The translations under genes were made by a program, and so were the position numbers. The notes below the pieces were generated by a model. It searched no databases. It was not told the DNA's origin and was given only the letters and a program-made list of their open reading frames with translations. A stretch of DNA of 63,180 nt, filler included, from Dugesia japonica (taxonomy: Eukaryota), in the NCBI GenBank assembly GCA_001938525.1. It is 7 parts of 7 records of this genome, joined end to end, with 100 filler letters (N's around TTAATTAATTAA, not from the genome) between each part and the next. Parts side by side here need not be neighbours in the genome. Positions count along the whole stretch, not along the records: positions 54,205 to 63,180 come from MQRL01616177.1; 6 more parts are not named here. One strand, written 5' to 3'. The stretch's first letter is position 1; each line of letters begins with the position of its first letter. Positions 2,550 through 63,180 of the stretch are shown in pieces.

Positions 2550-3559
2550 GACAAAATATTTTTTCTTTTGATTTATTATTATGAGAATTATTAATTATAC
2601 CTCAATTTTTTAAATTAAATTAATTTTTTATAACCATTTTTAATTTCTTGAATATTCTTAAATAAACACACATTTTTATTTGATTTTCTTTATTTAAATA
2701 GTCAGACATTTTAAATTTCTAGAATTTCCTTATTTAAAATTTTAATATTATTATTATTCTTTTTTTTAATTATTATTGGTCATAAAATTTCTTTTGACGA
2801 TTTATTATTTTAAAAATTATTTGAATTATCATGAATATTATTATTATTATTTGAAGTATTAATATTTGAATTATTATTATTTGAATTATTATTATTTGAA
2901 TTATTATTGTTGGAGTGAAACACTGGATACCGAAAATAAAAAATGGCGACAAGTAGACTCGAAGTTAAAAAATTGTCGTCAGAAAAGAAAGCGAAGCATC
3001 CAGATCTAAGAAGAATATAGTCGGGGAAAGAAGGAAATAATTAAAAGGAAAACCGAGATTGGTAGTCTAAACCAACGAAATAATCAACAAAACTCAAAAT
3101 TTACAACAAGAAACCACTCAGAAAAGAACAGANNNNNNNNNNNNNNNNNNNNNNNNNNNNNNNNNNNNNNNNNNNNNNNNNNNNNNNNNNNNNNNNNNNN
3201 NNNNNNNNNNNNNNNNNNNNNNNNNNNNNNNNNNNNNNNNNNNNNNNNNNNNNNNNNNNNNNNNNNNNNNNNNNNNNNNNNNNNNNNNNNNNNNNNNNNN
3301 NNNNNNNNNNNNNNNNNNNNNNNNNNNNNNNNNNNNNNNNNNNNNNNNNNNNNNNNATTTAAATAAAATAATTCGAACAATTTAAAATAAATTATTTTTA
3401 AAAAGAAAAATAATTATTTCATGAAAAATGTCAAAAACAACGACTTTCCATCGTGAGTAAATTAGCAATTAAAAAGATTCTGGTCGGGAAAAACTCAGAG
3501 ATTTTGAAAATCTAAGTTAAAATATCGGTAGAAGTCTCAGAGAAAAGATACAGGGGTTT

Positions 3560-3735
3560 AAATGTTGACCAATAGATTCGGAGTCCAAAAATATCAACCA
3601 ATAAAAAGAGCTCACATGACGTTCAAGCCAATGGAAACGTCAAGAAAGTCGTACGATACCAAATAACCAATGAAAGGAATGGGGGTGTGAAGAGAAACCG
3701 GTATAAATACCGATGTAATTTCCATTCAATCAATC
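3560..3735 (+). promoter_or_regulatory. LTR-type Pol II promoter (CCAAT cluster plus TATA box), duplicated at ~3864-4013
   Basis: CCAAT at about 3569, 3598, 3629 and 3668; GGTATAAATACC near 3700; TCAATC ~25 nt downstream. Confidence 0.45.
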
Positions 3736-4092
3736 TATGTTTTCCAGTCAAATACGGTAATTGAACGGAGATTATTTGAAGTAACTATTTTGTTATTCAA
3801 TCATGGATGCAACNNNNNNNNNNNNNNNNNNNNNNNNNNNNNNNNNNNNNNNNNNNNNNNNNNCAAAAATATCAACCAATAAAAAGAGCTCACATGACGT
3901 TCAAGCCAATGGAAACGTCAAGAAAGTCGTACGATACCAAATAACCAATGAAAGGAATGGGGGTGTGAAGAGAAACCGGTATAAATACCGATGTAATTTC
4001 CATTCAATCAATCNNNNNNNNNNNNNNAAATACGGTAATTGAACGGAGATTATTTGAAGTAACTATTTTGTTATTCAATCATGGATGCAACG
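3586..4092. repeat. ~228-bp near-identical direct duplication across an N gap
   Basis: 3586-3813 is repeated at 3864-4091. May be a contig-overlap artefact. Confidence 0.85.
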
Positions 4093-4924
4093 ATTTCTGA
4101 CTTCAACCGAAAATGGAACATTATGGTGGATCCAGGTAATCAGTAATATTTATCAAGGAAATGATTACTTCAAACCTCGTGCTTACTCCGGATCGGGATC
4201 CAGACCACGTTAGTTCTATTGATTGTCTTATTTGTTAAATTAATGTATAGCAAGTGAAGATTTGAAAATTGAATATATTTTTCCACTTGTTACAAACTTG
4301 CGTTCTTGATAATTTTAAATCTTAGAGTATGGAGTGTTAAAATTAACGTGATAATTGACTGAACCCAGTTAAATATGTTTAATTCTAAAACGAAAATTTA
4401 TAACTAATTAAGACTCAACGGACTGATAAAATCAAAATCCATTGAAACAGGTGTTAAACGGAAATCTAATAAATTAATGATGGATAAGTAGGATTTAAAT
4501 CTGGCGAGTATCATGGGAAATGAACCCGAACCAAAGGGGTGCGAGTCTGTACTCGAGCTACGAGTCAACGGCTTCATTTCGAAGATCTGGATTTTTTTGG
4601 GGACACCAGATTCAAATTGATCGCTGGGTTTTACCGGGTCAATTACCCTAGACTAAATTTCATATAAAGTTCCACCACCTTAGATGTAATCATATAAAAA
4701 ATCAACCCACCTAGGGTAAAACCCCAACATTATTATTTTATTACTATTGTCTTTATTAGTTATTTTAATTAAATTTTATACATTCATTGGATTTGATAAT
4801 AGTGAGTTGAAATTTTATATCATTTTGCGGATCCGAGTCTAGTCAATTATTGAAGATGATGATTGATTGTTTTTAAACAATTATTGTTTTTAAACATCAT
4901 GTTTTCTCTAATGATATCATCAAT

Positions 4925-14027: not shown

Positions 14028-14093
14028 TCTAGTTCTTAAATTGTTATGAATGAAAATAAACGAGGTGTGGATTTCATTTAGATTTTAAATAAA

Positions 14094-22300: not shown

Positions 22301-22318
22301 CTCCCACACTTTGTCCAC
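19310..22318 (-). pseudogene. pol: Gypsy pol (protease, RT, RNase H, integrase), frameshifted
   Basis: LLDTGA (PR); RLCLDFRRLN...MPFGIAAAP...YLEDILIF (RT, YLDD changed to YLED); TDSS...EMLAV...TDHK (RH); H-x4-H...C-x2-C and ISMDIYGPL (IN). Confidence 0.93.
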
Positions 22319-22566
22319 GTTCTCCCACTTCTCTGCTCCTTAAGGATACTCAACTAGTCTTTCTATTATTATACGGCTCCAACCAACTCCTCTACTGGTG
22401 GAAACCGTTTGTTTGGGACAGATTTTCTTATTTCTTCCTCTTCGGATTCTCTATCAAACTCTCGTTCCTTTCTCTTGTTTTCTTTTTCTATCACGTTTAA
22501 CTGATTATATCGTCGTCTATGTTCATCCATATCTATTCTGTCCCCCATTTATCGACTTCCAGTATT

Positions 22567-23145: not shown

Positions 23146-23371
23146 TATGTTTTTATCTTTTTCAAAAGCCAGATGTAAACGAGACTGAAACCCCTCAGTT
23201 TTTTTCGCTGTATTTTAACGTATTCTTCTACTAAATCTTCATCCAAAAATATACAATTTTCAAAAAATTTTACCAAATTTTACCAAATATCTTCTTCATT
23301 ACCAAAACACAAAATATAAAATTTAAACAAACCAGAAATTCCTAAAAAATTCTCTATCATAAATTCCTTAC

Positions 23372-39908: not shown

Positions 39909-41472
39909 TGAGTTGAGAATTTGGATGAGATCGCATTGGTCGANNNNNNNNNNNNNNNNNNNNNNNNNNNNNNNNNNNNNNNNNNNNNNNNNNNNNNNNN
40001 NNNNNNNNNNNNNNNNNAGATTTTAAAGCAAAGTAATTTTCAATTGAATCTTTAGTTGGAGAAGTATTGACCCTAGAATCGAATTTGATGAAATCGAATA
40101 CAGATTTTGGAGAGTGTTTAAACTTTTCGCGTAAAGAAAAGTCAAATTTATATCTATCTTTTCTGAAACGATTTGTGCTGTTAATGTTCTTTGACTTAAT
40201 ATTCCTCATCTTCAAAATATGATTAGTGTAGGCATTTTCAATTTCTTCAGGAGAGAAGTGCTGGAAATCAAGAAACATTTTTGCAATAGTGGAAACTCTC
40301 TCATGAAGAGTGTGAGTTTTCTTAGAAGAATAAGTAGGATTGATTTCCACATCGATTTTAGCGGAAAGGCTGATAAGAGACACCATTTTTTCACGAACTT
40401 TAGGCAAGTTAATGTTTGTGAGATTTTGGTTGTGTATGATTCTTTCAATGATTCCACAAGTAACAAGACCATTGTCAGAACGGCTGGTAGAAACATCGTG
40501 ATGAGGAGGACTAAGAGTAAATTGAGTCTCAACAGTTGGTTTGTTTCTAAAGAAGGAATTGAGATTGTTATTGAGAATAACACCAATATCAATCAACTGT
40601 TTATTTAGCGTTTGACTAGTAGTATCAATCAGGAACGATTTATGGTTTTTTTGATTAAATACAAATATGTTCCAATTCATATTAGAGAGAACAAAAGGGC
40701 AGACAATAAGATCCTTTTCAATAAACTGCCTGTATGTGATGTTTTCTTTAATAAATCCCTCATTACTATTGGCTAGGTTGATAGAACAGTCAACACTAAG
40801 AACCAGATGTTTAGAGGATTTAACGAATTCAGATAGATACCTCATCAAATGGAATTTATCAAAGTTTTGTAATGATTTTGAAGCTTCCATTTTTGAAGTG
40901 TTTTTGAAGTAACCACCACCATCAAGGCCACTGGCAGGACCTTTGTCGGAATCTTTAGTAGAATTTTCACATGCATACGAATGAACCCATGAGCGAATTT
41001 CTCCAATGTCAACCTTCTTAGGAATTCTGCCAATGGAGATCTTCATAATGTATCCACAGACTAATGGGCCACAATCATTACCATTAGTCTGCTTTTGATG
41101 TTCATTAGATTCGGTTTGGAAAACGAATTTTCTTCCAAGTTCTTGATTGAGGGTTCTAGTCATTTCTCTACCAATAGTAATGGTATTTGAATTAAGTCCC
41201 CCAAGAGGATCGAGGATCATAGATTTATAGTTGTAGGCAAAAAACAAGACCCAGTGATTATTGTTGACAAGAATAACTGTAAAGATTTTTGAAATATCAC
41301 TGAAATCAAAGTTATTCCATGTCTCACTGATAGAGGTCGAGTTTTGCTTAACTAAAGTAAAAACCCAGCTAGGAATCACTACTGATCTTTGATTCTTCAT
41401 ATTAACTTCAATGTAGCGATCAATTTGTGCATCGCTGAACCAAAAAGTGTCTTTGTCAGGTGGCTTTTTCAC
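39895..41472 (-). CDS. Tandem Ulp1/SENP-like (C48) cysteine protease domains
   Basis: Domain 1: WFSDAQID, NNNHWVLF, ILDPL, QKQTNGNDCG (H-D-C triad plus oxyanion Q). Domain 2: CPFVLSNMNWNIF, LIDTT, SRSDNGLVTC (His and Cys replaced by Asn). Confidence 0.88.
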   Translation of the reverse strand: MKKPPDKDTFWFSDAQIDRYIEVNMKNQRSVVIPSWVFTLVKQNSTSISETWNNFDFSDISKIFTVILVNNNHWVLFFAYNYKSMILDPLGGLNSNTITIGREMTRTLNQELGRKFVFQTESNEHQKQTNGNDCGPLVCGYIMKISIGRIPKKVDIGEIRSWVHSYACENSTKDSDKGPASGLDGGGYFKNTSKMEASKSLQNFDKFHLMRYLSEFVKSSKHLVLSVDCSINLANSNEGFIKENITYRQFIEKDLIVCPFVLSNMNWNIFVFNQKNHKSFLIDTTSQTLNKQLIDIGVILNNNLNSFFRNKPTVETQFTLSPPHHDVSTSRSDNGLVTCGIIERIIHNQNLTNINLPKVREKMVSLISLSAKIDVEINPTYSSKKTHTLHERVSTIAKMFLDFQHFSPEEIENAYTNHILKMRNIKSKNINSTNRFRKDRYKFDFSLREKFKHSPKSVFDFIKFDSRVNTSPTKDSIENYFALKSXXXXXXXXXXXXXXXXXXXXXXXXXRPMRSHPNSQLNVKQ

Positions 41473-41474
41473 AA

Positions 41475-41951
41475 TCAGGCTTTTTGGTGATTTGGGTCTG
41501 ATTGTGGAGCTACACCATCAGTTTTCCATTTTTTTAGAATGAGGCTTTGCTGGAGTTGAGATGGCCAGAGCAGATTTGAGTTTGTTTTTTTATTTCTGGT
41601 ATTGTTTCCAACACAGCTGCTGTCCTTGATTGGTTCATCAATGCTGGAATTAGCTGATAGATCAAGAATCTCAACTGTTTGATTATGATCTTTGGAAGGT
41701 AAGTTAAAATCTATTGCTAATTCAATAGGAACGAGATTTGTAAAAGTGTTCATGGCAATAGCAGCAGTGGGTGAAGGCTGCCTTAGATCTATTGGTGGAA
41801 CTATAGATTGGAGTGGTATGACGATTGATGAGTTTGTTTGATCTTCATTGGTGATCTGGTCGTTGATTTTCAGAGACGAATGTTGATCTACCTGGTTTGT
41901 TGAGTTCGGAAGATTGATTGGAGGAAGAGTATTCTTAATTGGAGTCTTCAT
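41475..41951 (-). CDS. Pro/Ser/Asn-rich linker segment of the polyprotein
   Basis: Bridges the 727-aa and 525-aa ORFs via frame changes. Confidence 0.5.
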   Translation of the reverse strand: MKTPIKNTLPPINLPNSTNQVDQHSSLKINDQITNEDQTNSSIVIPLQSIVPPIDLRQPSPTAAIAMNTFTNLVPIELAIDFNLPSKDHNQTVEILDLSANSSIDEPIKDSSCVGNNTRNKKTNSNLLWPSQLQQSLILKKWKTDGVAPQSDPNHQKA

Positions 41952-44118
41952 GCAATGTTGTAGATTGGGATTGCTTTTCCTTGAAATTGTTATTAGAAAA
42001 GATCACGCTATGAAGGAAAGAGCAAAGTCTTGGAGCGCCCTTCGATCTCAGGAATTCTGCTAAGTCCGACATCTGATCAGATGAAAGTGAGCAAAGGCTC
42101 CGAAAACGACAGCACTTCCGCATCAAGCGAAGGAAGGAGAGAGTAAGTTCTCTGGTTCTTTGTCTATTCGGATCTTTGAGAAGTTGTTGATAGTTGTGTA
42201 AAAAGGTAGTGTTCTTAGAACGAACATAATCAAGGATGTTTAGATCAAAAGATGAGCAACTCCGCTCAATATCCAAGAGGATGGACCTAAGAGTATCAGG
42301 GAAGATAGGAGTAGGTCCACGTTTTGGAGTCTTAAGAGGAGCTTTTTGAGGCAGAGTCCGATTAGTGTTAGGGATTTGAGAATGGGTATTATTGGATTTA
42401 ACAGCGTCACTGTAGGATGAATTGAAAGGTAAGATTTTTTCAGTAGCCGGCGAGAGATTAGAAAAATTATCGGCAGTTGTGAGATCTTTGGCAAAATTGC
42501 CCGGTAGACTAACAGAATTCAGCCTAGTGTTTAAGTCCATGATCTTATCAAATAATGGATTCTTAGGAAGATCAAAATGAATAATAGTTTGAGCCAATAG
42601 GTCGATGAGACGCGGTGGAAGATTGGCGATATTAAACAGCTTATTAGTGAGCTTAGAAAAGCTGGAGGCTAGATCACGATAGAAGACTTTTTTCTTCTCT
42701 GGGAATAGGAAGATGGTAACATCAAGACAGTGTAGCATCTTACGGAGGAGGTCAGCCATGATGGGGTTATGTTCGTCAATCAAAATAAGGTCTCTGTCTA
42801 AGGATTGGAGCGAAAACAGAAGTTCTCTAGATATTGGGGAGCTATAAACCGGGTGCCAGATCTCCGCAAGATGCGAAAAATCATCGCTAACAAAGGTATT
42901 AGCCATCGAGATACGGAGATTATTAGGAAGATCATAATTTAACTGAGAGACAGTTACAGAGCGAGAAGCAGAAGCAGGAGTATTGAATCTGCAAGGAGAA
43001 ACACAATGACGAGTACGGGAGCCGAATTTAGTGTGGTAGAAACAAAAGGCAGAGGAAGGAGAAGTTTGTTTGTTAAAAGAGCAGGGGCCAAAGCAGTGAC
43101 GGGCAGCATCTCTAAACCGACAATGATAAAAGCAGGTGAAGGCCTTTCTTTCAGATGAGTTAATATCATGGTTATAATCATCATAAAATTTATCTTTGGA
43201 AGTAGAGGAATTAGGCTTAAAATTACCATAGTTATAATGTTTTTCATCTTGATTATTAGTTTTGAGAACTGTCAGGTTATGATTCACACTGTCATTAGCA
43301 TAATAATCTTTATTAATAACTTCATCAGTAAGTTTCGACATTTTTTCACAAATTGATTCGAAATTTTGTGAAAAAATTTTTCTTTCGCCTTTCTTTTCAT
43401 TTTGTTTAACCGAGGTATTTATAGTTGTTGCTTGGCAACGTGTAATTTCAGATAACCTTAGGTTAATAAAATTAATAAATTTTATTAAAAAATCAGGGTT
43501 TTTGAATTCATTTAAATTAGCTGTTTTAGAGCTATTGGTAGAAGTGAGATTATGGGAAATAATGTCTTGAGGAAAATCCTGATTTAATTTGGGTGGATTA
43601 AAAGCAAGAGCATGAGAATCTTGCACAGGTGAAGCAGGTATAATATTATTCAGAGAATTCAGTTTTAAATTATTGTTAAGGAGAAATTCAAATGCTTCCA
43701 GTTTGTTGAGAATATTGTTGAGATTCTCTGTAATTTTGGAAGTGTGGCTCAAATGAGTGGGTTTATTATTATGGATGTCGGGTTTAACTGAATCAATTGG
43801 ATTAGAATAAATACCAGTTTTCAGACTTCTGCAGTTATGAAAGGCAGGTATAGGTGAAATAGTGTCAGAATCAGGATATTTATTCAGGTTAATCTGATGG
43901 TTGATATAATTNATATCGGAAATAAGCTCATCAATGGAGATCTTAGCAGGGTCGTTTTTTATAATAAAATTGTTATCAACAGCCGACTTTTGAATATTAT
44001 TAAAATTATTAACAGGATCATTATTACTATGTTTATTACTATTTTGAATATTTTTATTTACAAAATCGTGGTAATTACAGCTGCTTATAAAATCTTTATC
44101 ATAGTTAGTATTATACAA
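41935..44118 (-). CDS. Retrotransposon N-terminal region with two C-x2-H-x9-C-x3-C zinc motifs
   Basis: 727-aa ORF containing CFYHCRFRDAARHCFGPC (43134-43081) and CFYHTKFGSRTRHCVSPC (43044-42991). Confidence 0.75.
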   Translation of the reverse strand: MYNTNYDKDFISSCNYHDFVNKNIQNSNKHSNNDPVNNFNNIQKSAVDNNFIIKNDPAKISIDELISDXNYINHQINLNKYPDSDTISPIPAFHNCRSLKTGIYSNPIDSVKPDIHNNKPTHLSHTSKITENLNNILNKLEAFEFLLNNNLKLNSLNNIIPASPVQDSHALAFNPPKLNQDFPQDIISHNLTSTNSSKTANLNEFKNPDFLIKFINFINLRLSEITRCQATTINTSVKQNEKKGERKIFSQNFESICEKMSKLTDEVINKDYYANDSVNHNLTVLKTNNQDEKHYNYGNFKPNSSTSKDKFYDDYNHDINSSERKAFTCFYHCRFRDAARHCFGPCSFNKQTSPSSAFCFYHTKFGSRTRHCVSPCRFNTPASASRSVTVSQLNYDLPNNLRISMANTFVSDDFSHLAEIWHPVYSSPISRELLFSLQSLDRDLILIDEHNPIMADLLRKMLHCLDVTIFLFPEKKKVFYRDLASSFSKLTNKLFNIANLPPRLIDLLAQTIIHFDLPKNPLFDKIMDLNTRLNSVSLPGNFAKDLTTADNFSNLSPATEKILPFNSSYSDAVKSNNTHSQIPNTNRTLPQKAPLKTPKRGPTPIFPDTLRSILLDIERSCSSFDLNILDYVRSKNTTFLHNYQQLLKDPNRQRTRELTLSFLRLMRKCCRFRSLCSLSSDQMSDLAEFLRSKGAPRLCSFLHSVIFSNNNFKEKQSQSTTLHEDSN

Positions 44119-44126: not shown

Positions 44127-44774
44127 TTACATTATAACAGATTCAAAAACATTTAAGGGATTATTGCTAGAAAACGCATTAAAATTACTTTTAACCTGGT
44201 CTGAAGCCGTAAATCTAGCTGATAGAGTACCGCAAGCATTATCAAGTCGATTTTGGTTGTTAATGGCATCCTGTGTGATATGTGGTACATCAAATATATC
44301 GTTGAGTTTGCTAGGATTTTCATGGTAAATAGGATTGGAATCAGGATTTCTTTCACGAAATGGTCTTTCATAATTTGCAGTGCCATTTTGCTTGTATTTA
44401 TTCAAACCGAATCTGGNACCNGTNGCAGGAATAGATCTACTATNAATGGTAAATCCTTGTTGGTAATTTGCATCAGTGCGGTAGCCATTGTATTCATTAC
44501 TTGAGGCATTTGGATGTTTGTAGCGATTAATTGGGTAATTTGAATTCCTGTAATTATTACGGTTTTGGCGATATTTGGTGAAGTTTTTGAATCTTTTCTG
44601 CTTTTGGTAATTATTAAATCCACTGAAATTAAAACCAAGTGTCATTTCTTGGTCATTTTCAATTTCACATTCATTTAAGGATCCATAGTGGTCATATTGT
44701 CCGACATTTTCATTTATATTTTCAGTGGAAATTTGCTTATCCATAAGTAAACTGATAGAAATGATAAAATCCAA
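44127..44774 (-). CDS. Asn-rich N-terminal segment of the retrotransposon polyprotein
   Basis: 215-aa low-complexity ORF in tandem with the next ORF but in a different frame; no domain recognised. Confidence 0.5.
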   Translation of the reverse strand: MDFIISISLLMDKQISTENINENVGQYDHYGSLNECEIENDQEMTLGFNFSGFNNYQKQKRFKNFTKYRQNRNNYRNSNYPINRYKHPNASSNEYNGYRTDANYQQGFTIXSRSIPXXGXRFGLNKYKQNGTANYERPFRERNPDSNPIYHENPSKLNDIFDVPHITQDAINNQNRLDNACGTLSARFTASDQVKSNFNAFSSNNPLNVFESVIM

Positions 44775-45759
44775 ATTTNNNNNNNNNNAGTTGAATAATT
44801 AAAATTTCCAAATATCGAAAATATACTATAGAATTGAGAACAATTTGCCAAATTTGATAATTGATATACTTCCAACTGTTTAAAATTGTGACAAATTTAC
44901 TACTTATTAATAGCAGTAGAGCATAACAAATTTTTGCTTCTGTCCAAGCGCACGAGCATGTTGGATAATATTACGTAACCTTAACCTGTGGGTTACGTAA
45001 TTTGAAATTTAACCTCATTGATTGCTCAATTTTTTGACTTATCTCTCACAATTAATAAATTAAAAATTAATATAGCAAACTTTCAATATTTTATTCGAAT
45101 CAACATAATTTGGAATAAAAATTTCAATAATTAGTAGTAGAAAATTGAAATGTACAGGTTTTGATGTGAATTTAGGGGTCATCTATTGAAAAAAGGGGTT
45201 CTAGGGGTTTTTTGCATTTTAAGTGGTGATAATCGATTCCAAACTAGGCTAATGTCCGCCCGAGAAATGTTAAGGACTATTGCCGGAATCGAATAAACCA
45301 AAAATCAGCTCAATCGGATTACGTGGTAAAATTCTGTGTGTGTTTGAATATNNNNNNNNNNNNNNNNNNNNNNNNNNNNNNNNNNNNNNNNNNNNTTAAT
45401 TAATTAANNNNNNNNNNNNNNNNNNNNNNNNNNNNNNNNNNNNNNNNNNNNTATATATATATATATATATACGAGCTTTATATATAATTTCAATAGATAA
45501 ATAGAGAAAAAATGAATAATAATAATATTTATTATATAACATGGTAACTGTTTTATGTAATGCTAAATCCTATAAAATTGATTACTTATTAGTTCAAATA
45601 CCTTTTTATATGTGCATTGATTATGTAATAGATCCCATTTCATTTCTAAACGGCTCAGGTAATTATTCTAAATTTGAAACTTTACTCGTGTGCACCTAAT
45701 TTTCTACTCACCAGTAACATTTCAAAGCTTGTTGCATAAAATATTTGAAGGAGTATTAT

Positions 45760-47470: not shown

Positions 47471-50400
47471 CATTTATTTCACTATTACAACACATGTTTA
47501 GTAAGATAATTACACTTGAAATAGACCTGATTACATATTAAAATAGAATTTGATCATTTTCTATTGGCTAAAATCTGTCTTGACTTTTTTTCTTGTTTCT
47601 ACCTTGATGAGTACAATATCGTCCAGTTTGAATTTTTTGTTAGTAATCACGTCCGAAGTGTTTTCTTTAGTTCTATCTGAGACTTTTGACTCATACCACT
47701 TTTCTCTGATAATTTTCTTTCCAAATATGATCTCAGCTGGGCTCTATCCAGTTGTCTTCTGTTATGTTGCGTTCATTGTAAAATCTATTTCCGGTAAAAG
47801 ATCTGCCAAATCTGTTGTCTTTCTTTCCCAAAGTGTTGCATTAATCAAATCTCGAATTGTCCTGAATTTTTGTCTGTTTACATTATGATGATAGAGACTT
47901 GAAAAGCAAAATTTAAAATCTAGCTTTAGGGCAAAATCTCGTATAACTCTGGATTCAAAAGCTTTCCTACAATCTAGTCTTATTTCTCTTGGACATCCAA
48001 ATCTCACTATCCACTTTTCAAAAATAGNNNNNNNNNNNNNNNNNNNNNNNNNNNNNNNNNNNNNNNNNNNNNNNNNNNNNNNNNNNNNNNNNTCGATTAT
48101 TCCAAGAATGTATTTTTTTCGTCCACTTGTTTCCCGCATTAGCCGACATATATTTGTGAATATGACTTCAAACTAATTTATAGCTTCTAAACTCTATGTC
48201 TTCTCTTTAGTTGCTGTTGTCACTACTTTGGTCTTCTGACAAATTTTACAACTACAAACTATCTCTGTGTTTTGCTACACAATTTTTTCGAAATGTATTT
48301 TTTTCTCATATATTAATACACTTTTCAACTACTGCATGACATAATAATTTATGTATTTCTTCGATTATTTCATGTATTTTGCCATTCAAAATTTCCATTT
48401 GCTTGATTAAATTTGTTTCTTCAGAAATGTTTAATTGCTCTTCTTTTTCCTTTTCAATTATTTTCAGTATTCTCGTTTTAATCTTCCCTTTCTTGACATC
48501 TTTACTGTGTCATTAGAGATTTCTTCAGACCCTCGAAAGTATCGTTTATTTTATCAGTCCATTCTAATTTCTTGTAGCTTATTCCGCTACACAACTGCTC
48601 TTAGATCATTGATTCTTGCGTAGTTTTCTAAGAGCCTTCTGTAATATTTACATATTTCTAAAAACTTCGTAACTTCTTCACACAGTTAGGTCTTTCAAAT
48701 GTTCTTATTGCTTCTAATTTAGACCTATCAGTTCTCACATTATCCCTGCTAATTATGTGTCCAAGAAATTTGATTTCGCTCTGAAGAAATTGACACTTTT
48801 CTGAATTAATTCTGAAACCAGTACTCGTTATTTCCGTCAATACTTTTCAATGACTTTATAGTGTTGATCTTTATTGTTCGTAATATCAGAATGTGTTCAT
48901 CAAGATAAATCGTGGCTTGATTGATTTCGCCTGCCACTTTTGTCATCATCTCCTAAAATGTCCCTGGTTCCGCTGCGATGCCAAATGGCATTCTATTAAA
49001 ACAATATTGTTTGTGCTTTGTTGAAAACGCCGTTTTTCTTTGAGATTCTTTTTCGAAATCTACCTGATAGTAAGCATTTACCAAATCTATTGAACTGAAA
49101 TATTTGGCTCCATTTAACTTGACCATAATTTCATCGACATTAGTAATCGGAAAGGCTTGTCGTTTTGTTACTTCAATCAATTGTCTAAAATCCAAACAGA
49201 TTCTTATGTCCTTCTTTTTCTTTTTTCAAAAACAAATCAGTGGGTTATTTCATGGAGAATTGCGTTTCCGGTTAATATTATTCTCGAAAAGGTTATGGAT
49301 AGCTTCTTCAATTTTAGATTTCCAATTTATTGGTTGACTATACGGTTTTACATTGATTGGTTCACCACTTGTGATTATTTTGTGTCTTGTCAAATGTGAG
49401 GGTCTTACATCCAATTTATCTGCCATAAAAGCATCTTCTTTACTTTCAATTATTTTCAATAACTGTTGATTCTCTTTAATCTTCAAAATATTTTAGTCTT
49501 TTGTCTATCGCTCTCCATTTTTAATTTGTCTCACTAATTTCGCTTTAATATTGCAAATGTAATTTTCAACTTTTTCATCTGTTTTTCTATCGATCTTTTG
49601 CATAAACTAGTATCCAAAGATCTTCTGCAAATATATTCTACCTATCAGATCTGGTGTTACACTTTCAGCAACTAAGAATGTAATCTCTTAACAAAATTTA
49701 TCAATTATCATTCCAATTCTAACTTTTCCTACAATTTCCAGTGCACTATTATTTGCACAGCGCAATTTTTTATCACTCATTTCTAAATTTACTTCTCGTA
49801 ATTTATTAAAACAACTCAAACTCATAACGTTAATTCTATCCCCGGTATATAATAAACATTCAATTTTTTTGCTTGAATTGATACCGTAACACTTGGTCTG
49901 CATTGCAATATGTGGTACGAAATATTTGTTTTCTTTTTTATTTCAATTGTTCCGAACTAATTTTATTTTTCTATCATACCAAAAATTTTCCCTCTTTAAG
50001 AACCTGTATACTTTTTCCATAACTTAAATGATATCATCCCAATTTTTGAATCTCTGAGGATAATTACTCACTTCATTTAAGAATGGGTGGATAGAACCAG
50101 CTTCTCTACTGGTAGAGCTCTATCTTTTGGGTACTTTCTTTCAGAATCACTTTCATACACTTCCTCATATCCATCGTTTATACTAACATCTTCATCTGCA
50201 ATCGCATGTACTCCATTATATCGGTTTCTTGATCTTTCTGCAGTCATAAATTTCTCACTTGTTCTTTTCATTTTCAAATTTGTGTAGCACTCTTCTACTC
50301 TACTTTAACTATTATCACATCGTTTACAACTCACTTCTTGACATAACCTTCTAATATGGCTTACCTTTTCACAACCAAAATATTTTCTTAGTTTTTTATT

Positions 50401-51123
50401 TGAACAATCTCAATTTATGCGTCCTGTTTTATGAAAACTCCAGCACAATATCACTGTTTTTGTCAGACAATTTGCTTTTGTATGACCGATCATTTGACAT
50501 AACCAACATTCGATACTTTGTTTTTCCTTTCTTTGATCCAAATATCTATTCACTATATGAATTACAGGTTTCTGGTTATTTTGACTTGTAACTCTTGCGT
50601 AGCTTCTAGTTCTTCTATATTCTCTCGTTTTAGCAAAGTTACTTCTTCTTCAACTTTTTTGTTATCTGAACAATATACAACAATATAAACAATATACAAG
50701 TAGCATCTTTGCAACCATATTTTACTTAGAAAAACCTTTATTTGTAAAAAATCATTTTACTAAATCGTGTACATTTTTAAAATAAACTCGAGTCTCTTCA
50801 TTTCCACACTTCTAGTTAATAAAATTTGGAAAGTCCTTGATAACATCTTTCTCTTTCTCAAATGCCAAACCTAATCAAATCTTAAAACCTTCTACCTTTT
50901 TCAACGTCTTTATATATTCTTCCAACAAATCTTCATTTAACAAACAAGATACTAATCTCTCCTGTTTTTTCACCTGGGTGATATTTTTAGCTTCAAAATA
51001 AATTCACACCGCTTGATGAATTTTGGAATAAAAAAGTTTATTTCATTTATTTCACTATTACAACACATGCTTACTTGAAATAGAACTGATTACATATTAA
51101 AATGGAATTTGATCACTTCTATT
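47471..51123 (-). mobile_element. Second Ty3/Gypsy element, decayed with internal deletions
   Basis: Gag with CCHC remnants (about 50280-51000), PR LLYTGDRINVM, RT MDFRQL...MPFGIAAEP, and IN GCPREIRLD. Flanked by ~80-95-bp direct repeats (47471-47565 and 51044-51123), probably LTR remnants. PBS-like AGCGGTG near 51005. Confidence 0.9.
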
Positions 51124-54100: not shown

Positions 54101-54204
54101 CTTTNNNNNNNNNNNNNNNNNNNNNNNNNNNNNNNNNNNNNNNNNNNNTTAATTAATTAANNNNNNNNNNNNNNNNNNNNNNNNNNNNNNNNNNNNNNNN
54201 NNNN

Positions 54205-56640
54205 GTCAAAAACCATATTAAACTCTGAACATAAAGACAGAATTAATAATCTAATTAATATTACTAAAAATCTTACTTTTGATGAAACACTAGATATTAT
54301 CTATCAACAATTTTCTTGTGCTATTTAATTAAAAAATGCTAAAAACCGTATCTTGGTAATAAATCTTAAATTAAAACCCTTGATAAAAAGCAACTAAGAA
54401 CTGTATTTAACATAAATATGAAGCGTACAGTTGGTTATATTCTTAATGGAAATACTATCTCTGATACACCTAAATATGACGACATTATTAATAATTTTAC
54501 TCACTTTGATCCTACTTCAATAACTGGGAAAATATTAGACCATTTTGCCAAACTTCGAACACTCCATTAAATCTTGAATTATTTTCTTCTGACGAAATCT
54601 TACATGAATTTAGACGTGCCAAAAATACTACACCAGGTATTGATGGTATTTACTATAGGGATAATTCCAAATTAGATTATAAAGGTAAACTTCTTACTCA
54701 TTTTTTCAACAAAATTATCTTGATTGATCAAATTTCATCACAGTGGAAATCGTTTAAAACTGTTCTTATTCGAAAACCTAATAAAGAAGGTAATTATGAT
54801 AAAATCTCATGTTGGATACCGATTGCTTTACTTTCTGTTATGTACAAATTATTCGCTTCAGTCTTGACACGTAGATTGAACACTCAAGAAGTAAAATAAA
54901 TTATGCTGTAACTATTGCATGGTTAGACATAAAAAATCCTTTTGGTAGTATACCACATCAATATTTGCGGTTTATTCTTCGTTTTATTGGAGTGAGTCAT
55001 GATTTTGTTAATATTCTTAAAAACTGCTACTCTGATACAAATGGTTACTATAGTTGTGGTCCTATTCTTACAAGCAACATTACAATTAAAAACGGTGTTA
55101 AACAAGTTTGTCTACTATCTATGATTCTTTTTTTCTATTGCTATAAATCCTGTTCTTGAAGCTACTAAAACATGTCAAATATCACTTTTCATGATAAATG
55201 CTTCTTCTATTCAGGGATTTGCGTATGCTGATGACATAGCTCTAATAGCTAAAAATACTGATGATCTTCAAACTCTTGTAAATAAAGTTATTNNNNNNNN
55301 NNNNNNNNNNNNNNNNNNNNNNNNNNNNNNNNNNNNNNNNNNNNNNNNNNNNNNNNNNNNNNNNNNNNNNNNNNNNNNNNNNNNNNNNNNATGATATAAA
55401 AATTAAAAAACTACTTAGTAATGAATTTTATCAATATCTTGTTGTTCCAGTTGGAGATCGTAATAATCAAACAGCGTATGATGCTATTCAAAAATTGATA
55501 ACTGATGCCGAAAAACTGGCAACTTGTAAACTGTTTGGTTGGCAAAAACTGAAAGCTTACAAGCTGTTTTTGCATTCTCGTCTTACTTTTCCTTTTAGAA
55601 CTCGTGAAATCAAAACTAGTGATTTATCTATTCGTTTCGGTAACAGCAAATTTAAGTATAATTCTACTAGTAAACTTCGAATACAACTTCGAAAAATGAT
55701 GAATCTACCTGATCATTCTGAAATTGCTTATTTTTACACATCAACAGAAATGTGGGGAGGGGTGTATTGATCTTCTTGATGATTACCACTGTTAAAGTAT
55801 TGAACAATTCTTTAGATTATTTACTACTGATTTTGACTATACTAAAACAATTAATCATGAGTCTCTTATAATTCCTGCTTCATCAAGATTAGAGATAAAG
55901 GTACCGACTTTATCCCAAAGTTTTGACTGGATTAATGGTAAAGATAGTATCAAAGGTTGCAAATGGAAAAAACAAGTTTTATGTGTCTGAGAACGGCAAT
56001 TGAATACATTTAAAGAGCTCATGACATAACCATTACATTTACAGTTGAAATGAAAGGTACACTATTGCGTATTAATATGCCCAATCGGACGGTTACTGAA
56101 ACAGTGACTGCAGAAAACATGTTACCTTTCTACTACATAAAATCATATTTGACTCATACTGAATAATATGGCATAAAAGTAATAATAGCAACATTTTAGT
56201 TGATGCGGTGCGTCTTAGTCCAGATGTCAACAAAACTAAGCTAAACTATATGTTCTAGTCAAAATTGAATGAAATTTCATACAAAAAGCACGCACAAAAA
56301 CACTTTCAATAAATGCTCGACCTAATATCATTCTTTTTGATGAAAGACTATGTTGACGATGTCTCATTCTCACAATGAAACAATGTCACATGTTCTACAA
56401 AGATGTGANNNNNNNNNNNNNNNNNNNNNNNNNNNNNNNNNNNNNNNNNNNNNNNNNNCACAATGAAACAATGTCACATGTTCTACAAAGATGTGATATT
56501 AACAAATCATTAGGAACAAAGCGTAATAATTCGTGCCTTGAAATAATTGTTCAATATTTAAAATCCCCTGATTTAATAATCGTAATTGATTGTACTTCTT
56601 CTAGAGATGCCTTACCAGAAAGGTTGGATTCTAGTTGAAT
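54205..56640 (+). mobile_element. Second NeSL-like RLE non-LTR retrotransposon, decayed (RT to CCHC)
   Basis: TPGIDGITY, KPNKEGNYDKISCWIPIALL, GVKQVCLLS, FAYADDIALIA, WQKLKAYKLFLHSRLTF and ETMSHVLQRC parallel the element at 37354-39908. Confidence 0.9.
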
Positions 56641-57280: not shown

Positions 57281-57423
57281 CCAATTGCTATTAAATTATT
57301 ACAAGGTTGTGAGAAAAAAATGGAAAATCAAATATCGAGAAAATGAGATCCAATTGCTAATTAATTATTACAAAGTTGTGAGAATGAAAATGGAAAGTCA
57401 AATATTGAGAAAATGAGATCCAA
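57281..57423. repeat. ~70-bp tandem duplication
   Basis: CCAATTGCTA...GAGAAAATGAGAT occurs twice in tandem. Confidence 0.8.
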
Positions 57424-57784
57424 GAGCTACAAAATGAAAAAATATAGTTTTATATTTCTAAAAGTTGTTTTTATCAATAAAATAATTAATATTTGGAAAC
57501 ATAATGAGCTATTTAACTTTAAATAAGCAGTGAATAAGAAATTTTATTTTTTTAATGTTTCAAACAGTAATAGTGAAAATTCTTAACAGAGCTTCAAAGT
57601 AGTGGGAACCAGAAAAGATGGATGCTATAGTGGACATCTTCTCTGATTCGTACTACAGAAGCGGGGACAAAGACATATTAGGCCGCAGGTGAAGAAATCG
57701 AATTAATAATTCTTAAGATTTTAATTTTCTTTTAATGTTCTCGAATTTTAATTCATACCAATTATTTAAATTTGAATAACGTAG

Positions 57785-58216
57785 ATGCATAAACAGAAAA
57801 GAATGCTGAAGAGACCACGTTATGTCTGGCTCTATTTTGACGAATCTGGCAGATATTATATCGAGTGGTCTTAGGGGCGAGAAATGATAAGAAAAGAGAC
57901 CAAAGTTACTCGTGATACGATAAGTAATTTGGAAGCTGATAATGAAATGTCTCGTCTCCAACTGGCCATGAAAAATATACGGATCCGGTCTCTTGAGTGC
58001 CAAATTGAGAGAGCTGGGGAGTCGTTTTTAGCCCAGATAAAATCGCTGAAAGAGGAGCTCTCTAGTAAACCGATCCGGAAATCCAACATACGATCTCTCA
58101 TTAATACAAATGAGGCCATCGAGGAAGCCGAAGAACGCTAGATCATGTGAGAAGTGATGGGCCTGGATGGAGAGAGGCCGGTTGAGGGAGATCGTAACCA
58201 ACAATATTGTGAATAA
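57785..58216 (+). pseudogene. Orphan coiled-coil ORF, with in-frame stops (extends track ORF 57884-58141)
   Basis: GTAG|ATG at 57785, then MHKQKRMLKRPRYVWLYFDESGRYYIEWS*GREMIRKE... in one frame to TAA at 58216. AATAAA at 58215. Confidence 0.45.
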
Positions 58217-58509
58217 TAAATATTTGTATTGATTGAGATTTTAGTCCTTTGAGTTGAGAATGTACGAAGTGATACGTATGTCACAATTTTGAGCTATTTG
58301 TTTCGGGGTGGATTGTAGAGGCAGTCCCGGGATTCAGACTATTTTATTTAAATAAATAAAAATTTGTAAAATACTCATTATGACAATTACGTTGAGTGAC
58401 CGTTATTTTTGCTGGTGCAAAATACAATAATTAGAATACTTTTAAATCGAATTTATTTATATAACCTTGAATTCTGATGTAATGATTATAATTGACCTTA
58501 ACATTTCAG

Positions 58510-58835
58510 TGAATAAGAGCAATGAGGAAACCATACCAAGAAGGGAGGTGGTCACGATGCATAATCGATGGAAGGAGGAGCACAGAGAACTCCGAAACGA
58601 GGTATTAAGATTGAAGGGACAGACGATGAAACAGACTGCTAAATATGATCAGCTCAAAGAGAAGGAACTGTCACTTGAACTTGCCAATAGACTCATGGTG
58701 GACGTGATAAAAAAAGTACGCGGATCGTGAAAATTAAATGTTTGCTACTATTCGGACGATGTGGCTGAACTACCGAACCGTGCTAGCAGAGGCTGAGGAG
58801 AATGGCGTACCAGCGGGTTTGGACTCCTAGTTTAA
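58510..58835 (+). pseudogene. Orphan coiled-coil ORF (track ORF 58467-58730 plus read-through)
   Basis: TTTCAG acceptor at 58504-58509, heptad-like EHRELRNEVLRLK...LKEKELSLELANRL, and AATAAA at 58842. Confidence 0.4.
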
Positions 58836-59219
58836 TGTATAAATAAATGTTAGCCACAATTAGTTGAATTATTTTCATATTTTTATGGTCGGAATTTTCT
58901 AAGCATTTTGTGAATTATTATCAGAGTTTAATGTCTACATAATGTAACTGAAGCGAATCGTACCATAAATTACTGAGCATGCGAGAGTTATTGCTGTCAG
59001 TGTTCAGAATTCTAATGTGTCAGACGCGATACGGCAAAGTCACGCTGAACCCGTAGAAAAGAGGGACATATCATAGAGGTGATACAAATACTTGTGGTTT
59101 TTAGGTATACCCTAGATATGTTGATGAAGTTATTAATTATTAAAAGTGATATCAGAGAATGTGTAGATAACATTTAAAACATTAAAACCTAAAAAACCAA
59201 CAAATCCATTGAATCTGCT

Positions 59220-59670
59220 ATCTATTTAAAGGCTTTTGATTTGAAAATCTTACTGCAATCTACATGTATCTCCTTTGGAGCACTACATCTCAGGATTCAT
59301 TTTTCCATAATTGTTTTCTTTATTTATTCTTCATCTTGTTTAACTAATGATGTTAAACAAATGTATCTACAAAATTTATTTATTAAGGCACATATATATC
59401 TTTTCCTTCATGAGGTTTCTTGGAAAGATCCACAAATATTTACATAAATAATCTCAAAAAATTCATTAGCCGTTAACTTCATAGTTTCTTCTTTTATGGC
59501 GACTGTAGTTACTTTGTTCATTTGACACTCAGTATATCCATTAATTACTCTTTCTATTGTTTCTCTAAATTCTTCCATATCATATTCATTTGTTAAATAA
59601 TTTATAACTTTTTCTGTACCCGCGTGAACCAATAAACTGTGCATTTTGTTTACCATTTTTTACCATTTCT
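59220..59670 (-). mobile_element. Gypsy integrase fragment
   Basis: MHSLLVHAG...ECQMNK...FEIIYVNICG (HHCC region and start of the core). Confidence 0.82.
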
Positions 59671-60246
59671 GAAAGAATCCATATGTATGTACCCTATCTT
59701 TTGTGCAGTGACTAGCAGATGCCAATCCAGCTGGTGAGTGATGTTAGATTTTTATGTACACCTGCTATCAATTCGCAATTAAATGAGTAGTCAAATTAGT
59801 AATAATCGATTTTTTTATTGCACCTAAAACCAAAAAACTATATGTAATTAAGAAAGTCCAAAAATTTAGTTCATAAAATCAAAACTAATAGCATCTTCAA
59901 ATTAGAAGGTATTATAACTACTGTTTTTTTAAAAATACTGAATATAAAAATTTTTTAAATAAAACAACTTGTTGATTTTCATATAATTGTTGGGGTCCCA
60001 CCTGAGTCGAGTGACAAAAAAGGTGGCTGTGGAAAAAACAGCCCTCAGGGGAACCCTTTCAGGAATTAAACAAACCGTCCCTGTGATAGGTTTTCAGTTC
60101 ATGGTGGTTGACCTTACTCTTAATGGGAGGTACACGCCCACAAACCTTTACATTCGGGTTCAATATTTTCCCTAATTTTATAAAAATTTAAACTAATAAT
60201 TTTTTGAACATTTATTATTTAAAACATTTATAAGTCGTTTAAAACA

Positions 60247-60624
60247 CTAGGATCTACATTGCTCTACATCGTTTATAGTAAAATTAAACGCTGCATAATC
60301 ATCCTCATCGTTCCACTGTATCCAAGTTGGGTTACCGATCTGACAAGAAAGATCAGCTATATACTGTTTTAAAAAGTCGATCTTCCTTAGCAGAAGCTGT
60401 TTGTTTTCGTCCTCTAGCGCCTTAGTTTGAGCCGCCAAATCGTTTTGTTTTTTAACGATTAAGTCTAACTTTTTAATAAGTTTGTCACGCTGGCCAAGAT
60501 GTTTTAGGAGAGCCCTATCTTCCTTGCGCTTTAAGTGGCGTTCCAACAACAAACGGCGCATGATCCGGTGGCACCTTCGCAAACTTGTGGGGAAAACAAT
60601 GCTTGGCACTAAATAATTAACCAT
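60247..60624 (-). CDS. Orphan 125-aa coiled-coil protein
   Basis: Intact ORF; CTTTTCTTCAG acceptor 5 nt before the ATG; AATAAA ~30 nt after the stop. Confidence 0.55.
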   Translation of the reverse strand: MVNYLVPSIVFPTSLRRCHRIMRRLLLERHLKRKEDRALLKHLGQRDKLIKKLDLIVKKQNDLAAQTKALEDENKQLLLRKIDFLKQYIADLSCQIGNPTWIQWNDEDDYAAFNFTINDVEQCRS

Positions 60625-60744
60625 TAATACTGAAGAAAAGATAATGAATATTATGGATATTAAATTATTCTAAGGGTCATTGAAGTAATACATATCATGA
60701 CAGAGACCAATCATTATACAAGTTTTATTTATAAAATAGAAAGT

Positions 60745-61112
60745 TTAGGTACATCGGTTGGAGTTGGTCTTCGTACCCTTGTCGATCAAAAGGGGTTCGA
60801 GGTACGATTTTTCCTTGAGGTGTAAAATATCTTTGACCAGTTTATTTTCACGGTCGTGGCTGGACCGGATGATCTCGGCGAATGATTCTACTTAAGATTT
60901 CCACACTCTCTCTTGTTCGTGTGTAGCGTCCATCTCTTTGCATATGGTGATACATTTATTCTTATAACGCTTCACTTTTGCAATGGCAATGGCTATTTCG
61001 GCTACGAATCTGCGTTTCGCCAGTCGGTATAATTCCCAGGACATTTCGGTGTCCTCGCTGAATTCCCTCATTTGTTTATTAGTGGCCGATGAACGGTTTA
61101 ACGATGAATGCA
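60745..61112 (-). pseudogene. Orphan helical/coiled-coil ORF with one in-frame stop at 60892
   Basis: TTTTGGTTCAG acceptor at 61114-61113. The frame continues 49 codons past the stop to TAA at 60745; AATAAA at 60729-60724. Confidence 0.45.
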
Positions 61113-61265
61113 CTGAACCAAAATCACAATAAAAGTTAAGAACTCTAAATACGACTGCTTATAGTTCAAAAACCAAATAAAGTTGTATGGAATTTTTAAC
61201 TATTCAAACAATAAAAAGACAGGAAAACGGATTCCTATCTAAAACTTTATTCCTAACCAACGGGT

Positions 61266-61694
61266 TTATACTAGCACATCGGTGATTTCTTCCTCAGAAT
61301 TTTCGTTATTATTACTAGTCATATCATTCCGCGCCCTCCATAAATAATTTTGCACGAAAGAAGACAGTTGCAAGGTTGAGGGTAAGCGATTTGTAGTGAT
61401 GCCGACCAAAGATGGACCATCGTGCCACAGTTGCTCTACTTGGGGTATCTCAGTGGATCGTTCAAACGAGAGTGGGGCCGGTGGGAAGGCGACTCTATCT
61501 CTCTTTGGACCACACCAGCTATAGTAGGCTGCCTTCTCTGTTGCGTCCCATTGCCGATCTGTTGTGCGTTGTTCAACAGGAACATTTGAACGGTCTACTA
61601 ATACACCAGCGTCACGTTCATAGGGGTTTTGGTATCGTCGGAACACAGTGCGGCCGGAGCGAATGTCTAAACTCACTTCCCATTTGTATTCCAT
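61266..61694 (-). CDS. Orphan 142-aa protein
   Basis: Intact ORF, GC-richer than its flanks; TTGTAG acceptor 10 nt before the ATG; AATAAA 15 nt after the stop. Confidence 0.55.
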   Translation of the reverse strand: MEYKWEVSLDIRSGRTVFRRYQNPYERDAGVLVDRSNVPVEQRTTDRQWDATEKAAYYSWCGPKRDRVAFPPAPLSFERSTEIPQVEQLWHDGPSLVGITTNRLPSTLQLSSFVQNYLWRARNDMTSNNNENSEEEITDVLV

Positions 61695-61745
61695 AAGGAG
61701 GATTCTACAATTAATAACCAGTAATGTTCTGTTTAGGAATAAGGT

Positions 61746-62075
61746 TTAATTAATTAATATAACAATTTTGACATTGGTGGAGAATAATTTAAAGATAAAG
61801 TCAGTCATATGTTTTAATAGAATCTCCTACGAGACAACACGACAACAATTTGTATTCTATAAAAGTGATTCCACCAAGAATGGGGCAATTGGCTATTCCT
61901 CATCTATGTCAACTTGGTCCTGGAGTGGGAACATCTCGGCGAAACACTGAAGATCGGTTTCGTCGGGATGTTCAATCGCGCCATGCGATAGTATATGTAC
62001 CAATAGCTGTCGCCTCCACGATTTACGCCTTTCAAACTGAATCAATTTTAACATTTTTGAAAACTGATCAGCCAT
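61746..62075 (-). pseudogene. Orphan ORF with in-frame TAG stops (extends track ORF 61893-62075)
   Basis: CCAG|ACACATG and TTTTGGTAG acceptors upstream. The frame continues through three TAGs to a TAA overlapping ATTAAA near 61745-61750. Confidence 0.4.
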
Positions 62076-63180
62076 GTGTCTGGATTATCTACCAAAACAA
62101 AATCTGCTTTAGTTAACCATAAAATTTGAAAAAGAACCAATATGTAATAATTTAGTAGTATTTTTCTCATTACTATTAAAATCCTCCGTGGTCTAGAATC
62201 AATAACCGGGGTTTGCATAGTAAAAACCCAATAGAACTGAATTTTTCAATTGACCTCTCATTTTCGCTTAAATTGAAACTAGCAAAAGTTCTGCAAATTT
62301 ACTGGTGATCTGAAATTAACCCTTCATTGGTTAAAAATATAACTTCCATTTCTACGATTTTATGCAACTAATTTTCTATGGATATTGCTACTTTTTACGA
62401 ACTATATTGGTGTAAGCCTTGATCACTACGGTGGTGAAAAATCTAAACATAGTTGCTCGCGTTTTGCTAAATACAATATTATTAAACTTTACCCATTATA
62501 ACCGTAACTTTTTTATTAACTTATTTTACCTATGAAATTTATTTTGCATTTATTTTACTTATATTAGGTAGTTGATTCTTAATATGCGGCCTGCTTGGTG
62601 GGTTAGCGAATGAATCAAAAAGAAAATAAATTTTGATGTATCAGATAATTCACATTTTGCCCCGTGTGAGATCTACATTATGCAAGATATTATTCTCGTG
62701 TATTAAACTGGGCTTAATTTAAAGACGAATATTTAAATATCTAAATGAATTAACTGAAATAATTAATCAATATATAACTCAAAATAAGATTATTTAAATG
62801 TTAATTATTTGTGTTGCCCTTGGCAACAATCCAAGGCGATGAAATTATGCATGGGTTTAACCCTGTTGTTGTGCTGTATGATAACTGTAGGCGGTGTGTA
62901 TGATCATTGCGCATGCTGGCTGAATAAGAACTAATGTATGTATGTCCAGTGTGGATGTAATCATTTCGATGACAGTTGATTGTACTTGGTAATNNNNNNN
63001 NNNNNNNNNNNNNNNNNNNNNAGTTGGGAGTTTCTAATCAAGATTTACTAAGCTATCGTTTGCATATTGCATAATTAAAACCGCGTACTTTATTTAAGAT
63101 ATCAACTTCTTAGGATAATGGAAAATACAATGATCAGCATCTTTTTTCATTAACATATTCATATAGCATGTTATTTTAAA

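Follow-up and report, generated by a model that had tools for sequence, protein, structure and literature searches.

Partly decayed arrays of orphan mini-genes ending at probable LTR-type termini in a scaffold of the planarian Dugesia japonica

A stretch of 63,180 nt from the planarian Dugesia japonica (assembly GCA_001938525.1; hereafter the window, meaning the whole stretch analyzed) carries near its end a series of four small minus-strand genes that stops at 59988 in a terminus resembling that of a long terminal repeat (LTR) element (array A), and a second, plus-strand array of the same design at 57.5-58.9 kb (array B), which was newly recognized in this analysis and cannot be aligned with the first. 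This repeated architecture of orphan mini-genes, partly decayed, is real, and its host element is probably of LTR type; that the mini-genes are coding genes borne by an element is likely. As to their expression, we tentatively prefer a reading in which the right end of a Gypsy-like LTR element carries them as accessory mini-genes, transcribed from one promoter and resolved by poly(A) cleavage and spliced-leader (SL) trans-splicing. The window is a concatenation of seven scaffolds, in pieces of 8.3-10.5 kb cut by six artificial spacers (44N-TTAATTAATTAA-44N; 10504-10603, 18935-19034, 28017-28116, 36732-36831, 45352-45451 and 54105-54204), and long-range links within it are therefore not real. 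Arrays A and B lie tail to tail on the seventh and final piece (from 54205 onward, a scaffold of ~9 kb), which is bounded by the spacer at 54105..54204. A solo-LTR-like element used for comparison (element X; 2908-4729) lies on the first piece, and hence array A and element X are not linked.

Array A codes for protein beyond what chance would produce. Its units have a GC content of 0.40-0.47 and the spacers between them one of 0.14-0.29; the AT content fits that of planarians, given as above 70% in PMC11410931. The original prediction had read four open reading frames (ORFs) of ~110-140 codons; the four co-oriented minus-strand units were recovered, but only ORF2 (61266..61694, 142 amino acids) and ORF4 (60247..60624, 125 amino acids, a heptad-rich sequence of helical type lacking a transmembrane segment) are intact, both of them orphans. 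ORF3 (60745..61071, 108 codons) is interrupted by an in-frame TAA (60894-60892), and codon-position bias is seen before as well as after this stop. ORF1 (61893..62075) stops at a TAG (61895-61893) after only 60 codons, contrary to its predicted length; it has an acidic C-terminus and a protein-like composition (0 of 1000 shuffles as good), extending it to 61750 means ignoring three in-frame stops, and the 90 nt past its first stop are devoid of coding signal (311 of 1000 shuffles as good). Stop-codon reassignment was set aside, because the long element ORFs in the window are read with the standard code. When composition-preserving block shuffles were generated in two sets of 5000, two ATG-initiated ORFs of at least 120 amino acids on one strand appeared in 1/5000 and 0/5000 of them, and two such ORFs accompanied by AATAAA within 35 nt in 0/5000 of both sets. 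Amino-acid composition beat 1000 of 1000 shuffles for ORF1 and ORF3, 998 for ORF4 and 862 for ORF2, the last not being significant by itself (138 of 1000 shuffles as good). The coding-frame score, which uses a crude background built from element proteins, ranked the proposed frame as best of six in all six array ORFs (A1-A4, B1 and B2); the ORF1 island also contains an open antisense frame of 105 codons, scoring below the sense frame (-4.0 versus +8.4). GC content at third codon positions (GC3) is 0.44-0.56 in both arrays, whereas six other element ORFs in the window have values of 0.19-0.38.

Each unit of array A is followed by a poly(A)-like hexamer, at the predicted positions 61750, 61251, 60729 and 60216. 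That these lie at or just after each stop codon holds for ORFs 2-4, where AATAAA follows the stop by 14 nt (61246..61251, then a U/GU-rich tract), 15 nt (60724..60729) and 30 nt (60211..60216), but ORF1 has only ATTAAA, in two copies (61818 and 61750, within 61745..61818), the first being 74 nt past its real stop. AATAAA thus follows two of the three upstream genes and the last gene; the chance of finding it in such an interval is 0.14 (14%) per AT-rich site of the window, and ~0.003 for three running. The distances from signal to next acceptor, predicted at ~40-130 nt, were measured as 44 nt (88 nt with the alternative pair 61818/61730), 137 nt and 98 nt. Spacing of this kind is indeed typical of SL operons: the genes are co-oriented and no more than 300 nt apart, the operon distance threshold described in PMC12582326 being at most 300 bp, and distances of ~100 nt match those of flatworm operons (PMC8629364, PMC12582326), which are described as peaking near 100 bp (PMC8629364). 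The signal-to-acceptor stretches are T-rich on the sense strand (119 T versus 71 A, p 0.0006), as are the spacers of array B (158 T versus 119 A, p 0.02), a bias that fits U-rich downstream elements and pyrimidine tracts, and also T-biased promoters.

The splice sites are less informative. As predicted, a YAG occurs 4-41 nt upstream of every ATG, but this trinucleotide is found 92 times in the 3.3 kb of the array A region (every 36 nt), and only the acceptor at 60631 (60630..60631), before ORF4, is strong, falling in the top 0.1% of the 5599 AGs that were ranked with a crude home-made score. The acceptor at 61114 (61113..61114) is moderate (top 9%); the candidates within 61705..61730 are 61706, which scores weakly and fits UUNYAG, and 61730 (top 7%); and those within 62080..62090, at 62081 and 62090, are weak. 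Sites 62081, 62090 and 61706 do not rank among the region's 16 best, and acceptor-like sites just as good are present on the antisense strand. Donors were graded by the number of consensus positions matched out of 9. None near the ORF ends is good (6/9 at best, and 5-6/9 for ORFs 1-3), and each of ORFs 2-4 closes with a stop plus AATAAA, findings that disfavor ordinary cis-spliced exons of one gene, the outcome the original prediction had named as fatal to it. A good donor-like site (GAA/GTGAGT, 8/9, a grade reached by 13 of 2744 minus-strand GTs) does occur at 61676, 18 nt into ORF2, for which no phase-0 acceptor is found among the named sites before ORF3 or ORF4, and two further donor-like sites, at 62254 and 62653, each score 7/9. 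Acceptor phases differ among the units. A leader-supplied AUG in frame with an ORF was rejected, as 0 of 6 acceptors are in phase. Upstream of the array, four CCAAT/ATTGG boxes (62137..62410, minus strand) mark a putative promoter region, and the box at 62330 and the proximal one of element X have AACCAATGAA.GG in common. Scans of the window with Rfam (at gathering score) and for tRNAs returned no matches.

Array B (57566..58847, plus strand) repeats the layout of GC-rich units, AT-rich spacers and AATAAA. Its units lie at ~57570-57690 (acceptor 57566, donor 57689, with the look of an internal exon), 57785-58141 (118 codons with an internal TAG, AATAAA 73 nt after), ~58230-58350 and 58482-58730 (82 amino acids, acceptor TTTCAG at 58508, AATAAA at 58842), and they are preceded by a ~70-bp tandem repeat containing CCAAT (57281..57445), a putative enhancer or promoter. 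Protein composition taken alone is not significant here (B1 189 and B2 251 of 1000 shuffles as good). Paralogy among the array ORFs was considered and rejected (best E value 0.03). The tail of element B (59046..59202) carries the motif TGAACCCG at 59046 and the terminus CCAACA at 59197-59202, and between this end and that of array A lies a decayed Gypsy integrase fragment (59200..59674, minus strand; H2C2 and part of the core), outside both termini. The window holds two other copies, whose similarity to the fragment breaks off at ~59200, where the CCAACA of B ends (59202), a coincidence within 13 nt that has a chance probability of ~0.004. Element B is therefore an insertion, and its right end resembles those of A and X. 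This junction and the GC3 contrast uphold the idea of a mobile element carrying an accessory cassette, although no linkage to gag-pol was found on the scaffold, and the polycistronic part of that idea remains tentative, as said above.

Array A was predicted to end ~220 bp past its last signal at an LTR-like terminus, and the terminus ACCCCAACA (59988..59996, minus strand) does lie 228 nt from the last AATAAA. Since no primer-binding-site (PBS)-like TGG follows it, the end would be, if LTR, of the 3' or solo-LTR type. Its supposed identity with the terminus of element X is borne out in that the 9-mer ACCCCAACA occurs twice in the window versus 0.12 expected, but the two lie on different scaffolds. 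The non-coding tail of A (59988..60200) resembles the U5 region of an LTR; it has a GC content of 0.46 over 60169-59988, acceptor-like sites at 60028 and 60003, and a fold z score of -2.35 against mononucleotide shuffles. It also contains TGAACCCG (60155..60162), a motif of which the window has three copies where 0.34 would be expected. The tails of A, B and X hold one copy apiece, 157-209 nt from their ends, and the distance from the preceding AATAAA is 54 nt in A and 53 nt in X; this motif and the 9-mer were both picked after the fact. Element X itself (2908..4729, plus strand; TGTTGG...CCAACA) is flanked by TTAT on each side, within an ATT microsatellite, and has a CCAAT cluster, a TATA-like box, AATAAA at 4468, a terminal inverted repeat of only 6-9 bp and no long ORF. 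Identical segments at 3586-3813 and 3864-4091 flank N gaps inside it and are probably an assembly duplication, so that X is shorter than 1.8 kb. Termini of the form TG...CA are present at both ends only in X, A (59988) and B (59202) having one end each, CCAACA. A and B share the order CCAAT cluster, array, U5-like tail, CCAACA, and X shows the same order minus the array. An A-X alignment that includes the terminus scored above all 500 shuffles and ranked first among 658 tiles, and the score of the local A-X match excluding the terminus was reached by 10 of 2000 shuffles. Comparison of these sequences thus suggests kinship of the A, B and X ends, but their tails resemble each other only weakly overall.

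Searches for the outer parts of the elements returned nothing. No TGTTG start matched by a target-site duplication (TSD) was found for A or B on a scaffold cut by the window end, and a TGTTG at 62828 was rejected as the 5' end of A, having no TSD. It belongs to a hairpin palindrome (62812-62828, TGTTGCC-ctt-GGCAACA) at the edge of a GC-rich stretch beside an N gap, which may be the end of another insertion that would limit element A to ~2.8 kb here. No polypurine tract (PPT), sought as a purine run of at least 11, was found in the 3.2 kb of A, whose most purine-rich stretch (13/15) lies inside ORF3; the LTR start may lie past the window end. No gag-pol was found upstream of A within the window or elsewhere on the scaffold, B likewise yielded neither a PPT nor gag-pol, and no PBS follows any of the A, B and X ends.

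The description of the ORFs as orphans stood up in every protein, family and fold search that was run. Two large protein searches took in ORFs 2-4 of array A only: ORF2 yielded no relative among 11 candidates from 5.8 billion proteins of 78-249 amino acids, ORF3 (with X read at the break) none among 2 candidates, and ORF4 a single match among 1.84 billion representatives (E value 5.7e-4), which covers 34 residues of a 761-amino-acid protein with six repetitive stretches and was dismissed as coiled-coil noise. An exact look-up recovered 0 of 10 proteins, Pfam gave nothing near its cut-off for the six array ORFs, PHROGs a best E value of 0.035, the PDB one of 0.088 (ORF2), the ESM Atlas no usable match for ORF2 and a best value of 0.77 for ORF4, with low recognition (1474 and 1502), and a GTDB scan with ORF2 0 of 197 stretches confirmed. 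The AlphaFold single-sequence model of ORF2 is unusable (predicted local distance difference test score, pLDDT, 35.6); that of ORF3 has long helices (pLDDT 63.9), and none of its 9 matches to viral folds reached an E value of at most 0.001. The N-termini of ORF2 and B1 have a WW-like look, for which Pfam gave no support. Even a conserved pol fragment had no annotated close relative in the searched sets, and missing homologs therefore tell little about range; with the RNase H of a Gypsy element in the window as query, the closest matches reached up to 73% identity and the named ones, at ~37%, were uninformative. All six ORFs lack a transmembrane segment (maximum 19-residue hydropathy at most 0.68), and thus the single transmembrane helix of MDG1 sORF2 or FAST-like fusogens.

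Under the reading we prefer, fast-evolving mini-genes would sit just inside a long 3' or solo LTR, or in the 3' internal region, in at least two diverged families of the design, which here share one scaffold with their tails facing. A single promoter upstream, at the CCAAT cluster or further up, would give a polycistronic RNA, from which each mRNA would be freed by cleavage and polyadenylation behind its ORF, and the downstream piece would be re-capped by SL trans-splicing at an acceptor ~45-140 nt on, as in host operons. The products, small, soluble and mostly helical, would most plausibly act inside the cell, in capsid or RNA traffic or against host silencing, rather than as fusogens. SL trans-splicing is favored over cis-splicing and over separate promoters because the 44-137 nt spacing fits flatworm operons, ORF1 has no strong donor ahead of it and the acceptors differ in phase. 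Several observations weigh against this reading. Acceptors are at chance level in three of the four units, the UUNYAG motif described in PMC12582326, read by eye, is fitted by only one of five named acceptors (61706), a shared intercistronic motif that is not AT-rich was not found, and the canonical AATAAA is missing after ORF1. Genomic RNA would, moreover, need to escape several internal poly(A) sites. For A, the PPT, second end, TSD and gag-pol were all not found. The proteins of A and B do not align (best E value 0.03), and the kinship of the ends weakens in global alignment, where the A-X score was equalled in 114 of 1000 shuffles and by 135 of 1030 segments of the window, the A-B score was equalled in 1000 of 1000 shuffles, and the B-X score was marginal (21 of 1000); in a window-wide scan excluding the terminus, two unrelated loci outscored X.

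Among the alternatives, the one that survives best, although fairly unlikely, is that the same element array is resolved in cis, one leader exon being spliced to alternative last exons that each have a poly(A) site, much as the adenovirus late unit works. It shares the coding, poly(A) and terminus evidence and could draw on the donor-like sites at 62254, 62653 and 61676; extra ORFs of LTR elements are, as described in PMC5408684, typically expressed from spliced messages, and in MDG1 elements a pair of small ORFs is reported to be separated by an internal poly(A) site that is in use (bioRxiv 2025.03.14.642691). On the other side, a strong donor is absent from the 1 kb available upstream of ORF1, the differing acceptor phases exclude a shared coding leader, and ORF4 would require read-through of three signals. 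Both arrays are preceded by CCAAT clusters, and X shows their order minus the array; on these grounds, the arrays may also lie inside the LTR itself, between promoter and U5; in this arrangement, which we consider unlikely, each LTR, even a solo one, would be a self-contained operon that uses the host spliced-leader machinery and encodes three or four proteins, and different families would swap unrelated gene sets.

That each mini-gene has a separate tiny promoter in its T-rich spacer, as in compact viral genomes, with the acceptors incidental, is quite unlikely. The mostly chance-level acceptors and the TATAAA at or near the ends of ORFs 2-4 speak for it, and constitutive and stem-cell promoters of planarians are described as T-biased AT tracts lacking enriched motifs (PMC10558129). 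The spacers, however, are 71-78% AT, versus more than 90% in those promoters (PMC10558129), the 44-137 nt between signal and acceptor must also accommodate cleavage elements, the CCAAT clusters lie mostly upstream of the arrays, and the acceptor at 60631 is very strong. Similarly doubtful is an origin other than an LTR retroelement, with the arrays carried as cargo by a mobile or viral element of a different kind, or being last exons captured from the host, or an operon of the host located by chance beside an element end. The failure to find a PPT, gag-pol and paired end, the foreign-looking GC3 and the presence of Polinton-like remains elsewhere in the window would fit; both arrays nevertheless end in CCAACA, one of them at a clear insertion junction, the anatomy of X is LTR-like with its very short terminal inverted repeat, and no host-type protein family was matched. 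Ginger and Polinton elements have long terminal inverted repeats and a transposase/integrase or DNA polymerase, and Pfam scans detected no ORF of this type in A or B. That the units are internal exons of one ordinary cis-spliced gene with short AT-rich introns is very improbable, given the poor donors near the ends of ORFs 1-3 and the ATG and stop of each unit (with AATAAA for ORFs 2-4), even though the GC contrast is exon/intron-like and the first unit of array B resembles such an exon. A chance pattern in GC-mosaic non-coding LTR DNA, to which the non-significant compositions of ORF2, B1 and B2, the low ESM Atlas recognition, the lack of homologs and the antisense frame of the ORF1 island could point, is just as improbable in view of the shuffle results, the significant compositions of ORFs 1, 3 and 4, the lower score of that antisense frame and the recurrence of the design in B.

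Elsewhere the window contains Gypsy, R2/NeSL-like and Polinton-like remains, as judged by a Pfam scan of its ORFs, the family labels beyond the Pfam names being our presumption, and no host gene was found among the 116 ORFs scanned (15 + 101). A Gypsy element at 19200-23350 (minus strand), with a multi-knuckle CCHC gag, reverse transcriptase (RT), RNase H and direct repeats on both flanks, has relatives at ~350-1400 and 47500-51100. A non-LTR element at 37354-43341 (minus strand; R2/NeSL-like) comprises an upstream 468-amino-acid ORF, a Ulp1 (C48) protease and an RT, which a decayed RT fragment at ~54370-56640 (plus strand), on the same piece as the arrays, resembles. Upstream of the non-LTR element, 44127-44744 (minus strand) encodes an N/Y/R-rich ORF of 205 amino acids, and 24191-24445 (plus strand) an 84-amino-acid ORF with a Cys-rich end and a hydrophobic N-terminus, both having no Pfam match. 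At 13257-14633 (plus strand), a double jelly-roll-like fragment (Pfam E value 4e-4, under the cut-off) precedes an ORF with a phospholipase A2 (PLA2)-like domain (E value 4e-8), which we take to be Polinton/adintovirus-like remains.

LTR retroelements normally have one poly(A) site, and their extra ORFs are expressed from internal promoters or by cis-splicing. If a serial ORF-poly(A) array is indeed processed as an operon, it would represent a new expression strategy in which a mobile element makes use of the host's trans-splicing, and one would have to ask how the genomic RNA gets past several internal 3'-end signals. That a single scaffold of 9 kb carries two arrays that cannot be aligned further suggests that small proteins encoded by elements form a common, overlooked pool in this genome. 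A full-text literature search that left most subscription papers outside listed none whose title or abstract opening describes such an array, or an SL operon, in an LTR element. Parts of the design nevertheless have precedents. Gypsy elements of the MDG1/412 group (bioRxiv 10.1101/2025.03.14.642691) are described as carrying small accessory ORFs (sORF1 and sORF2, ~70-110 amino acids) separated by an internal poly(A) site from which a short mRNA results, much like the arrays, but these are two unspliced ORFs between the 5' LTR and gag, of which sORF2 is transmembrane, whereas array A has four ORFs lacking transmembrane segments before a 3' or solo-type end, each with a poly(A) signal (for ORF1 ATTAAA only). 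In the Gypsy element Cer1 of C. elegans, an accessory 2.4-kb mRNA is reported to be SL1-trans-spliced and the 8-kb RNA not, which makes trans-splicing the likeness; it differs in being a single cis- and trans-spliced mRNA overlapping gag, with no serial ORF-poly(A) operon in the account given (PMC3315495). Planarian Burro/GYPSM1, compared by description only, are giant Gypsy-like elements that occur in AT-rich genomes of flatworms and possess long LTRs as well as accessory ORFs; their cargo differs in consisting of recognizable domains in or upstream of a huge polyprotein, a mini-gene array not being mentioned in that description (PMC6431247), and the present element was filed under no named family. 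Bdelloid Terminons are likewise described as retroelements with multiple accessory ORFs, some coiled-coil, but are Penelope-like, with hammerhead and telomeric rather than CA-ended 3' ends (PMC6431247, PMC5408684); the element here ends in CCAACA, and Rfam gave no match at gathering score. SL operons of flatworms and nematodes are described as co-oriented genes ~100 nt apart in which a poly(A) site is followed by an acceptor, as here, but they hold host genes, mostly conserved, and are not described there as mobile-element cargo (PMC8629364, PMC12582326); in a tapeworm, solo-LTR donors are reported to compete with the SL (PMC4558846). Fish foamy-like endogenous retroviruses (ERVs), finally, differ in being vertebrate retroviruses for which separate poly(A) signals are not reported (the text of PMC5210030 contains no instance of 'polyadenyl'), but they are described as having two or three orphan accessory ORFs that lack transmembrane segments before the 3' LTR, some under purifying selection (PMC5210030), so that they join MDG1, Cer1, Burro and the Terminons among the precedents for parts of the arrangement seen in arrays A and B.

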